DNA of 64,000 nucleotides, taken from assembly GCF_022846255.1 (NCBI RefSeq), contig NZ_AP025682.1. The stretch is one strand, 5' to 3'. Both the position numbers and the translations under genes were made by a program. The notes beneath the pieces are model-generated. The model was not told the origin of the DNA, ran no database searches, and was given only the letters and a program-made list of their open reading frames with translations. The stretch comes from Escherichia coli. GTDB taxonomy: Bacteria > Pseudomonadota > Gammaproteobacteria > Enterobacterales > Enterobacteriaceae. This document shows, piece after piece, positions 60,248-64,000 of this stretch; position 1 is the stretch's first letter; the number at the start of each line of letters is the position of its first letter.

Positions 60248-61936
60248 ATGAGTGGTGAAAAAAAGGCGAAAGGCTGGCGGTTTTATGGCCTTGTTGGTTT
60301 TGGGGCAATAGCGCTGCTATCCGCTGGCGTATGGGCATTACAATACTCTGGCAGTGGGCCAGAAAAAACGTTGTCGCCACTGGTGGTGCACAACAATCTG
60401 CAAATCGATCTCAATGAGCCGGACCTCTTTCTCGACAGCGACTCTCTGAGCCAGCTTCCCAAAGATCTCCTTACCATTCCGTTTCTCCACGATATTCTGA
60501 GCGAAGATTTCGTTTTCTATTATCAGAATCATGCTGATCGTCTGGGTATTGAAGGCAGCATTCGCCGCATTGTCTATGAACACGATCTCACGCTGAAAGA
60601 TAAGCTCTTTTCGTCACTCTTAGATCAGCCCGCGCAGGCGGCGCTGTGGCACGATAAACAAGGCCATCTTTCACATTATATGGTGCTGATCCAGCGCAGT
60701 GGTTTAAGCAAGCTGCTGGAGCCATTGCTGTTTGCCGCTACCAGCGACAGCCAGTTAAGTAAAACGGAAATCAGTAGTATTAAGCTAAATAGTGAAACCA
60801 TCCCGGTTTATCAGTTGCGCTATAACGGCAATAACGCCCTGATGTTCGCAACTTATCAGGACAAGATGCTGGTGTTTTCCAGCACGGACATGCTGTTTAA
60901 AGATGACCAGCAGGATACCGAAGCCGCGGCAATCGCAAGTGATTTGTTAAGTGGTAAGAAACGCTGGGAAACCAGTTTTGGTCTGGAAGAGCGTACTGCC
61001 GAAAAAACGCCAGTACGCCAGCGCATCGTGGTCAGTGCAAATTTGCTGGGTTTTGGCTACCAGCGATTAATGCCTTCTTTTGCTGGTGTGCGCTTCGAAA
61101 TGAGCAACGACGGCTGGCACAGTTTTCTGGCGTTAAATGATGAATCCGCAAGCGTAGATGCCAGTTTCGATTTTACGCCGGTATGGAACAGTATGCCTGC
61201 AGGGGCCAGCTTCTGTGTGGCGGTGCCTTATTCACATGGTATTGCTGAAGAGATGCTTTCCCACATCAGCCAGGAAAACGACAAGCTCAACGGGGCGTTA
61301 GACGGTGGCGCGGGGCTGTGCTGGTATGAAGATTCAAAATTGCAAACTCCGCTGTTTGTCGGTCAGTTTGATGGTTCTGCCGAACAAGTGCAATTGCCAG
61401 GAAAACTGTTTACGCAAAATATTGGTGCGCACGAAAGCAAAGCGCCAGAAGGTGTTTTGCCGGTAAACCAGACTCAGCAGGGCGAAGCGCAAATCTGGCG
61501 TCGCGAAGTGAGTTCCCGATACGGCCAGTATCCGAAAGCGCAGGCGGCGCAACCCGATCAATTAATGTCGGATTATTTTTTCCGCGTGTCGCTGGCGATG
61601 CAAAACAAAACGCTGCTTTTCTCCCTCGATGACACGCTGGTTAATAACGTGCTGCAAACACTGAATAAAACCCGCCCGGCAATGGTGGATGTGATACCCA
61701 CTGACGGCATCGTTCCGCTTTATATCAATCCACAAGGCGTGGCGAAACTGCTGCGTAACGAAACACTGACCAGTTTGCCGAAGAATCTCGAACCGGTTTT
61801 TTATAATGCCGCACAAACTTTATTAATGCCGAAGCTGGACGCTTTATCTCAACAACCGCGTTATGTCATGAAGCTGGCACAGATGGAACCCGGTGCCGCC
61901 TGGCAGTGGCTACCCATAACCTGGCAGCCGCTATGA
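60248..61936 (+). CDS. yfaA: YfaA, DUF2138-family protein (alpha-2-macroglobulin gene cluster)
   Basis: ORF 60200..61936; [14 protein letters not shown]... from 60248, 562 aa with N-terminal TM/signal. Confidence 0.8.
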
Positions 61937-62556
61937 GGCACGGACTGCTGGCGCTGATTTGCTGGCTGTGTTGTGTTGTTGCCCATAGCGAAATGCTGAA
62001 TGTCGAACAATCCGGGCTGTTTCGCGCGTGGTTTGTACGCATTGCACAGGAACAGCTCCGCCAGGGGCCAAGTCCGCGCTGGTATCAGCAGGATTGTGCG
62101 GGCCTGGTGCGATTTTCGGCGAACGAAGCGCTGAAAATTCACGACAGCAAATGGCTAAAAAGTAACGGTATAGCAAGTCAGTATTTGCCGCCTGAAATGA
62201 CGCTAACACCTGAACAGCGTCAACTGGCGCAAAACTGGAATCAGGGGAACGGAAAAACCGGCCCCTATGTGACCGCGATTAATTTGATTCAATATAACAG
62301 CCAGTTCATTGGCCAGGACATAAACCAGGCGCTGCCTGGCGATATGATTTTTTTCGATCAGGGCGATGCCCAGCACTTAATGGTCTGGATGGGGCGTTAC
62401 GTCATCTACCACACCGGAAGCGCCACGAAAACTGACAACGGAATGCGCGCAGTCAGTCTGCAACAACTTATGACATGGAAGGACACCCGATGGATACCCA
62501 ACGATTCCAATCCCAATTTCATTGGCATTTATCGTTTAAATTTTCTGGCGCGATAG
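61933..62556 (+). CDS. yfaT: YfaT, DUF1175-family protein
   Basis: ORF 61906..62556; [17 protein letters not shown]... from 61933, 207 aa; start overlaps yfaA stop. Confidence 0.8.
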
Positions 62557-64000
62557 CAGCGTGCTTGTGCCTGTCTCTTGTGGGAACAGGGCTTGCTAAT
62601 GCTGATGATTCGCTTCCTTCCAGTAACTATGCGCCGCCCGCCGGGGGAACATTCTTTTTGCTCGCTGACAGCAGTTTTAGCAGCAGTGAAGAGGCGAAAG
62701 TGCGACTGGAAGCACCGGGGCGTGATTATCGGCGTTATCAGATGGAAGAGTACGGCGGTGTGGACGTTCGTCTGTATCGTATTCCTGACCCGATGGCATT
62801 TTTGCGCCAGCAGAAAAATCTGCATCGCATTGTGGTGCAACCGCAATATCTGGGCGACGGGCTGAACAATACGCTGACCTGGCTGTGGGATAACTGGTAC
62901 GGCAAATCTCGCCGCGTGATGCAGCGTACTTTTTCTTCTCAGTCTCGGCAGAATGTGACTCAGGCGTTACCCGAATTACAGCTCGGTAATGCCATTGTTA
63001 AACCTTCCCGTTATGTACAGAACAGCCAGTTTTCACCGCTGAAAAAATATCCACTGGTGGAACAGTTCCGCTATCCACTATGGCAGGCAAAACCGGTCGA
63101 GCCGCAGCAAGGGGTAAAACTGGAAGGCGCATCCAGCAATTTCATCTCGCCGCAGCCGGGCAACATCTATATTCCTCTCGGCAAACAACAGCCGGGACTG
63201 TATCTCGTCGAAGCGATGGTCGGTGGGTATCGGGCAACGACGGTGGTATTTGTCTCCGATACCGTGGCGCTTAGCAAAGTGTCAGGCAACGAACTTCTGG
63301 TGTGGACTGCTGGCAAAAAACAGGGTGAAGCGAAGCCAGGCTCAGAGATCCTGTGGACTGACGGTCTTGGCGTGATGACTCGCGGTGTGACCGATGACAG
63401 CGGTACCTTGCAGTTACAACATATATCGCCAGAACGTTCATACATTCTGGGTAAGGATGCTGAAGGCGGCGTTTTTGTCTCCGAGAACTTTTTCTACGAA
63501 AGCGAAATCTACAACACCCGCTTGTATATCTTTACCGATCGCCCGCTATATCGCGCAGGCGATCGTGTCGATGTTAAAATGATGGGCCGCGAGTTCCACG
63601 ATCCGTTGCATTCATCCCCCATCGTCAGCGCACCGGCGAAGCTTTCGGTGCTGGATGCCAACGGCAGTCTGTTGCAAACCGTCAATGTCACGCTGGATGC
63701 GCGCAATGGCGGGCAGGGGAGTTTCCGCCTGCCAGAAAATGCCGTTGCCGGAGGTTATGAGTTACGCCTGGCTTACCGCAATCAGGTCTATAGCAGTAGT
63801 TTTCGCGTAGCCAACTATATCAAGCCACATTTCGAGATTGGTTTAGCTCTCGACAAAAAAGAGTTCAAAACTGGCGAAGCGGTCAGCGGCAAACTGCAAC
63901 TGCTTTACCCGGATGGTGAGCCGGTAAAAGATGCCCGCGTGCAGTTAAGTTTGCGCGCTCAGCAATTATCAATGGTCGGTAACGATTTGCGTTATGCCGG
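62490..64000 (+). CDS. yfaS: YfaS, bacterial alpha-2-macroglobulin-family protein; 5' part, continues beyond the window
   Basis: Frame open from ATG 62490 (alternative 62475) to the window end, so absent from the ORF track; my translation [41 protein letters not shown]... has a signal-peptide-like start and reads sensibly to position 64000. Confidence 0.75.

Follow-up and report, generated by a model that had tools for sequence, protein, structure and literature searches.

Positions 60248-64000 of a 64,000-nucleotide stretch of Escherichia coli DNA (contig NZ_AP025682.1; the whole stretch is called the window here) very probably form the front of the yfaA-yfaT-yfaS-yfaQ-yfaP operon, the five-gene enterobacterial version of the Pseudomonas aeruginosa operon magABCDEF, whose products make up a bacterial alpha-2-macroglobulin complex of type II (thioester-less); this judgement includes the trap function. 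The region under study is 3.75 kb in length and is the promoter-proximal end of the operon. The yfa operon of E. coli is already known, has a good annotation, and occurs in nearly all genomes of the species; it is intact here and does not represent a new kind of system. An earlier note on this DNA called the cluster poorly characterised, which is true of the E. coli proteins but not of the family. Descriptions of the family date back to 2004, and it was partly dissected by experiment in P. aeruginosa from 2013 to 2025. The features that carry the assignment are the following.

60248-61936, plus strand: yfaA, 562 aa, with a full-length match to Pfam DUF2138 (PF09909, residues 15-559, E=9.4e-285) and to the NCBIfam equivalog PRK11410.
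61933-62556, plus strand: yfaT, 207 aa, with a match to Pfam DUF1175 (PF06672, E=4.2e-58) and a weak one to NlpC/P60 (E=0.0016).
62477-62492, plus strand: Shine-Dalgarno sequence GGAAGGA and ATG start (at 62490) of yfaS, read from the sequence and lying within the yfaT coding sequence.
62490-64000, plus strand, running off the window: yfaS, the first 503 of 1534 codons, an open frame with no stop.

The earlier note had described yfaA, yfaT, and yfaS as co-directional and tightly packed, with a DUF2138 product for yfaA and a DUF1175 product for a yfaT gene whose start overlaps the yfaA stop. All of these elements were found where it had placed them, and the two Pfam matches and the overlap of the yfaT ATG with the yfaA stop (as ATGA) bear out the gene assignments. 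The gyrA gene occupies 57472-60099 on the plus strand, directly upstream of the yfa genes, according to the open reading frame listing and its translation. The packing consists of a 4-nt yfaA/yfaT overlap and a 67-nt yfaT/yfaS overlap in the window, and of downstream gaps of 0 and 4 nt in relatives. The RefSeq gene names yfaA, yfaT, and yfaS agree in E. coli strains A25 and K-12. When a megablast search was performed with 60000-64000, a match was found in 5423 of the 5426 complete E. coli genomes (5396 by a second count), and the annotation beneath the matches was always gyrA, yfaA, yfaT, and "alpha-2-macroglobulin family protein". The PADLOC models gave no match at E<=0.01 with any of the five proteins, and thus the yfa cluster is not a catalogued anti-phage system. 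An Rfam scan found no RNA family in the yfa region.

The alpha-2-macroglobulin nature of the yfaS product was assessed with hidden Markov models, as the earlier note had proposed. The 5′ part of the gene encodes an MG2 domain (residues 344-440, nt 63519-63809, Pfam E=2.4e-19), and the MG2 region also has weak matches to complement C5 and CD109 (E ~1e-3 to 6e-3). For the sequence beyond 64000, the Logan contig DRR102846_99 (L084) served as a proxy for the window's own record; it encodes the exact YfaA of the window and is identical to the window at 7519 of 7519 bases (56482-64000). In the A25 orthologue, the downstream part of YfaS has matches to A2M_BRD (3.5e-17), A2M (7.7e-12), and bMG10 (3.4e-5), and the same Pfam families were found on contig L084. 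No Pfam thioester domain was matched in the full A25 orthologue, and no C-x-E-Q motif occurs in the 1534-aa YfaS of either L084 or A25. The only cysteine residues of these two full-length proteins are residues 25, 27, and 1189, the first two of which lie in the putative signal peptide. By inspection, this signal peptide covers approximately residues 1-38 (nt 62490-62603), with a hydrophobic core and then ANA followed by DD. YfaS is thus classified, on its sequence features, as a type II bacterial alpha-2-macroglobulin and as the homologue of MagD.

Two other assignments for YfaS were considered and rejected. Its signal peptide contains a lipobox-like "IAAC", but Cys25 is a tyrosine residue in Escherichia sp. 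E1V33 and is absent from the Pseudomonas orthologues; because Cys25 is not conserved, YfaS is probably not a lipoprotein. A type I identity, as in ECAM (YfhM), does not fit the lack of a CxEQ motif, nor the neighbours, which are yfaT and yfaQ and not pbpC. ECAM and the Salmonella Sa-A2M share with YfaS the periplasmic build of multiple MG domains, the bait region, and the C-terminal bMG10-type domain, and all of them have been proposed as protectors of the periplasm. However, the type I proteins have a CLEQ thioester, trap covalently, are lipoproteins, and have pbpC as a neighbour (PMC3735191, PMC5764988), whereas YfaS appears to have none of these and belongs to a five-gene operon. The metazoan alpha-2-macroglobulin, C3-C5, and CD109 proteins share the Pfam domains MG2, A2M_BRD, and A2M with YfaS; unlike them, the YfaS type lacks the thioester domain signature and is monomeric, periplasmic, and tethered to the membrane by partner proteins.

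Is the whole operon related to the Pseudomonas mag operon? A scan with YfaT, using one genome per species, gave 216 relatives, the best 80 loci of which were used for the comparisons below. These 80 loci come from Escherichia species, Superficieibacter, Enterobacillus, Yersinia alsatica, Edaphovirga, a Methylobacter, and about 70 Pseudomonas. When the five E. coli proteins were compared with the 80 loci by tblastn, the order DUF2138, DUF1175, A2M, DUF2300, DUF2135 was found in every locus, with identities of 43-49% for YfaA, 67-76% for YfaT, 52-55% for YfaS, 52-57% for YfaQ, and 49-59% for YfaP. In Pseudomonas and Methylobacter, an additional YfaP-like gene lies upstream of the DUF2138 gene (~40-43% identity, E ~1e-55; L030 7442-8161, L049 7396-8187, L074 1979-2701). 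By homology and gene order, YfaA corresponds to MagB, YfaT to MagC, YfaS to MagD, YfaQ to MagE, and YfaP to MagF, and the upstream YfaP-like paralogue to MagA. PA4491, PA4489, and PA4488 have been annotated as YfaA, YfaS, and YfaQ, respectively (PMC10977779).

The P. aeruginosa MagABCDEF system (PA4492-PA4487) resembles the yfa operon in its gene order, its homologues, the 67-nt overlap, and the membrane-anchored DUF2138 protein, and its MagD, like YfaS, has no CXEQ motif; the apparent Sec-type signal peptides of the two proteins share no conserved cysteine of a lipobox. Unlike the Pseudomonas mag operon, the Enterobacterales form has five genes and lacks MagA, and in Escherichia the operon directly follows gyrA. 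The E. coli form thereby offers a natural minimal version of the complex for mechanistic study. In YfaQ, which is encoded outside the window (A25, L001 19096-20742), a SpoIID-like segment (residues 313-361, E=6e-6) lies between two DUF2300 repeats and gives the operon a second peptidoglycan-related fold, besides that of YfaT. Regulation of the Pseudomonas mag operon is by GacS/RsmA. A CsrA/RsmA-type regulation of yfaA, suggested by AAGGA at its ribosome-binding site, was considered and dropped, as a single GGA in a Shine-Dalgarno sequence is not evidence for it.

The start of yfaS lies inside yfaT, out of frame, so that the two genes overlap by 67 nt (62490-62556), and the GGAAGGA upstream of it is suitably spaced. 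The same ATG and an identical 67-nt overlap were found in 77 of the 78 loci carrying the motif, from Escherichia to Pseudomonas. The ATG arises from an Arg-Trp codon pair of yfaT, CGA-TGG. The arginine codon is CGA in 63 of 63 Pseudomonas loci, while CGA is used at 0-6% at 11 other conserved arginine sites of the same gene in these loci. The one locus with CGC, that of Methylobacter, has no overlap, and its A2M gene is separated. Since CGA is kept against codon bias and the 67-nt overlap is conserved, the embedded yfaS start is under selection.

The Prokaryotic Genome Annotation Pipeline (PGAP) places the yfaS start of A25 at a GTG (62580); this codon lacks a ribosome-binding site, and a start there truncates the signal peptide within its hydrophobic core. 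The gene call on contig L084 starts even later, at the window equivalent of 62700, and the signal peptide is lost in both calls. Judging from its conservation, the ATG at 62490 is the supported start and the PGAP start is too late. The start given in the earlier note, 62490, agrees with both the curated K-12 coordinate and the conserved embedded ATG. Automatic annotations thus often deprive YfaS of its signal peptide by starting the gene at GTG 62580 or later. In Pseudomonas loci, a second in-frame ATG lies 63 nt downstream and overlaps the magC stop as ATGA; both magD starts may be used in Pseudomonas.

The yfaA gene has a Shine-Dalgarno sequence AAGGA 8 nt upstream of its ATG. The N-terminus of YfaA has a basic stretch and then a hydrophobic helix that spans roughly residues 11-34 (nt 60278-60349), and an AlphaFold 2 model has a helix at residues 11-34. 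YfaA has the features of a DUF2138/MagB protein, namely the full-length domain, the N-terminal anchor, and a gene directly 5′ of the DUF1175 gene. Its syntenic orthologues in Pseudomonas, Yersinia, and Edaphovirga are 43-51% identical. A search of the PDB with the YfaA sequence gave no match, and NCBIfam labels YfaA a "hypothetical protein" and gave nothing useful for the other proteins. The basic stretch and the hydrophobic helix begin all of the YfaA orthologues except those of one Pseudomonas group, which have a lipobox (LLAAC). In this group, consisting of P. argentinensis, P. straminea, P. flavescens, and their allies (L009, L011, L013, L015, L019, L020, L024, L026), the DUF2138 protein has a lipoprotein-type start, LLAAC followed by GQDS, and these MagB orthologues appear to use another route to membrane tethering. 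Either type of start, helix or lipobox, would tether the YfaA orthologues to a membrane. A separate observation concerns Escherichia albertii NBRC 107761 (L005 8307-10004), in which codon 345 of yfaA has become a stop (CAG>TAG) and yfaT, yfaS, yfaQ, and yfaP are uninterrupted. This inactivation is a separate event from the nonsense mutation in yfaS of K-12.

YfaT has a signal peptide and aligns with the solved P. aeruginosa MagC (PDB 7bk8) at E=9.1e-103 over residues 21-206 (186 residues). According to a review (PMC10318531), DUF1175/MagC is reported as peptidoglycan-binding, and DUF1175 is classed there as catalytically inactive. The NlpC/P60-type cysteine (DC[A/V]GLVRF; here DCAGLVRF) and histidine (QHLM[I/V]WMG; here QHLMVWMG) are invariant in 80 of 80 loci. 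The invariance of these residues despite the "inactive" label may merit a second look.

The earlier note suggested that the cluster may be a protease-trapping envelope defence module, and this idea agrees with what has been published on the Mag complex of P. aeruginosa (PMC3735191, PMC5764988, PMC12663445). MagD has no thioester or lipobox; it is a periplasmic protein associated with the inner membrane, and MagA, MagB, and MagF are purified along with it (PMC3735191). Once its bait has been cleaved, MagD captures TEV protease without a covalent bond. It is anchored and stabilised by MagB, which has 589 aa and a predicted transmembrane helix, and its processing requires MagE (PMC5764988). In a CRISPR interference screen of 2025, the mag operon was found to protect P. 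aeruginosa from VgrG3 and Tae1, peptidoglycan-targeting effectors of type VI secretion systems (T6SS) (PMC12663445). In E. coli, cells in which yfaQ is deleted are wider, and their phenotype profile is similar to those of mepK, mepS, and nlpI mutants (bioRxiv 10.1101/2025.02.11.637708).

By analogy with the Mag complex, YfaS would be exported to the periplasm, where YfaA, as the equivalent of MagB, would keep it at the inner membrane; YfaT would dock the assembly to peptidoglycan, and YfaQ (MagE) and YfaP (MagF) would stabilise or process the complex. An intruding enzyme would cut the bait region of YfaS and be trapped non-covalently, and the trapping might shield the envelope from proteases and from peptidoglycan-targeting toxins such as T6SS effectors. 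The N-terminal YfaA anchor, the YfaT signal peptide, the SpoIID-like segment of YfaQ, and the yfaQ deletion phenotype are all consistent with this Mag picture.

Several points weigh against a trap of this kind. MagA, a part of the Pseudomonas complex, is absent from E. coli and all of the Enterobacterales loci sampled. The bait and thioester-equivalent regions of YfaS lie outside the window; their sequence comes from a contig of 100% identity and a genome of 99% identity. A sigma-70-like promoter scan of the gyrA-yfaA spacer gave no site. The experimental data on the E. coli proteins consist of the yfaQ imaging phenotype only, and a YfaQ-GFP (green fluorescent protein) fusion was without signal in four media (bioRxiv 10.1101/2025.02.11.637708). 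Furthermore, the protection observed in Pseudomonas is against muramidase-like and amidase effectors, not classical proteases, and the physiological role may lie elsewhere than in the "protease trap" step.

In the main rival explanation, the operon encodes mainly a peptidoglycan-centred device that neutralises incoming wall hydrolases or aids wall turnover, in which the macroglobulin acts as scaffold or cage and not as a trap for proteases in general. Peptidoglycan-enzyme folds occur in two of the five proteins, YfaT being NlpC/P60-like with its cysteine and histidine invariant in the 80 loci and YfaQ being SpoIID-like; MagD protects against the peptidoglycan-targeting VgrG3 and Tae1 (PMC12663445), and the yfaQ deletion groups phenotypically with the mepK, mepS, and nlpI mutants. 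However, MagD does trap a protease in vitro after bait cleavage (PMC5764988), and DUF1175 is catalytically inactive according to the review mentioned above (PMC10318531). This explanation, which overlaps with the Mag-type trap instead of excluding it, is quite possible but falls short of being probable.

The original proposal for bacterial macroglobulins was that they are colonisation factors acting against host proteases, such as neutrophil elastase and gut proteases, that enter the periplasm after damage to the outer membrane. MagD changes its conformation with neutrophil elastase, and loss of MagD lowers virulence in a model of chronic infection (PMC3735191, PMC5764988); the cluster is, moreover, near-universal in E. 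coli, a gut commensal. Nevertheless, many of the carriers are soil or plant pseudomonads, and one is a methanotroph (Methylobacter), with no animal host, and the direct protective phenotype reported so far is inter-bacterial (PMC12663445). A role mainly against host proteases is unlikely.

As the earlier note stated, the yfaS frame is open from 62490 to the end of the window, with 503 codons and no stop (open reading frame listing and translation), and its statement that yfaS is a pseudogene in K-12 was correct, as the gene is annotated so in MG1655 (b4500). The K-12 gene has the same length as the intact gene, and its sole defect is that codon 1368, which lies 865 codons beyond the end of the window, is changed (TGG>TGA). 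Since K-12 yfaS is also uninterrupted over the first 503 codons, the open frame in the window is uninformative on the K-12 lesion. Thus, the remark that no disruption is visible in the window holds as an observation but not as a contrast with the K-12 pseudogene, whose stop is at codon 1368. The extension past 64000 was made by way of the proxy contig L084, where yfaS has no frameshift or stop (1534 codons, ending ...GMQVK*). Downstream of it come yfaQ (549 aa), yfaP (258 aa), and a convergent atoB. This order downstream of yfaS is common to L084, A25, and K-12.

The two alleles of codon 1368 were counted in the 5426 complete E. coli genomes with 55-nt probes in which the variant base falls within every 28-mer seed. 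The TGA allele was found in 364 genomes, and 25 of 25 sampled ones were K-12 or laboratory derivatives (W3110, MC4100, C600, XL1-Blue), while the TGG allele was found in at least 4340. The pseudogene state of K-12 yfaS is a lineage-specific laboratory nonsense mutation. Because of this nonsense codon, E. coli studies of the system should avoid K-12; natural isolates such as the present one carry an intact gene. The codon differences between the window and K-12 are mostly synonymous (synonymous to non-synonymous, 66:18 in yfaA, 13:5 in yfaT, and 138:34 in the yfaS part), suggesting purifying selection and not decay.

The yfa genes of the window differ from those of K-12 more than gyrA does, with identities of 94.7% for yfaA, 97.0% for yfaT, and 96.2% for the yfaS part against 98.2% for gyrA. 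Alleles at least 99% identical to the yfa allele of the window were found in only 2 of the 5426 genomes, the best being A25 with 99.6% over 60000-64000; the genome of the window itself does not belong to this set. Compared with A25, the window has 99.9% identity in yfaA, 98.7% in gyrA, and 97.7-98.7% over gyrA and the first ~48.5 kb. Since a rare yfa allele is close to that of A25 while gyrA and the first ~48.5 kb are less similar, the cluster appears to have been exchanged by recombination, the yfa allele of the window being the one recombined in. The comparison with another strain, 07_3636, gave a further feature of the region.

62470-62481, no strand assigned: an unoccupied lambdoid prophage attachment site, recognised by comparison with strain 07_3636.

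In strain 07_3636 (L085 9234-9312 onward), identity to the window ends at 62481, and the very next genes are those of an integrase and an excisionase. The prophage sits in the ribosome-binding site of yfaS, takes the place of the final 24 YfaT residues, and parts yfaS from yfaA-yfaT. It has been reported that yfaT is among the genes interrupted by integrative elements (bioRxiv 10.1101/2020.01.24.918748). In the second count over the 5426 complete genomes, the matched places exceeded the records by 183, and 211 records had less than 80% coverage. The excess of matched places is consistent with a split of the region in some genomes, strain 07_3636 being the only one looked at.

Might the cluster of E. 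coli be a decaying remnant without current function? The nonsense codons in K-12 yfaS and in yfaA of the E. albertii type strain, the prophage that splits the region in some genomes (183 surplus matched places), and the lack of a detectable YfaQ-GFP signal could be explained in this way. However, the region is covered at 80% or more in 5185 of the 5426 genomes, the K-12 allele is limited to 364 genomes of which those sampled are all K-12 or laboratory strains, and synonymous change strongly exceeds non-synonymous change. In addition, the embedded yfaS start is kept against codon bias across genera, and none of the five genes is disrupted on contig L084, which matches the window exactly. These results make decay a highly improbable explanation.

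A more specific version of the wall-centred idea can be put forward with caution, although I consider it rather doubtful. The YfaATSQP proteins might form a peptidoglycan-docked, inner-membrane-tethered neutraliser of wall-degrading toxins (T6SS amidases, muramidases, and perhaps lysozymes) and not chiefly a protease trap. If this were true, the divergent alleles (~4-5% against K-12, compared with ~1.8% for gyrA) and the prophage split at the yfaS ribosome-binding site would reflect an inter-bacterial arms race, and the function would be hidden in K-12 because of the W1368* allele.

The spacer between gyrA and yfaA, where a gyrA terminator had been proposed in the earlier note, contains two hairpins with U-tails after the gyrA stop.

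60117-60138 and 60147-60176, plus strand: two tandem terminator-like hairpins, each flanked by an A-run and a T-run, according to an RNA fold.

The fold of 60095-60200 has an energy of -38.2 kcal/mol (z=-4.77), and none of 200 shuffled sequences was as stable. A simple terminator scan picked up neither of the gyrA hairpins because the T-runs were absorbed into the stems.

Some minor observations were made elsewhere in the window. The residues of GyrA that determine quinolone resistance are wild type (Ser83 and Asp87), and thus the strain is without any common gyrA quinolone-resistance mutation. The nuoL-nuoM intergenic stretch at 9505-9663 is the sole part of the first 48.5 kb that did not align with A25 (158 nt against ~225 nt), and it probably represents a repeat element of variable length. 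At 2492-2534 on the plus strand, the Rfam nuoG RNA motif (RF01748) was found with 50.3 bits, the only Rfam family above threshold in the whole window.

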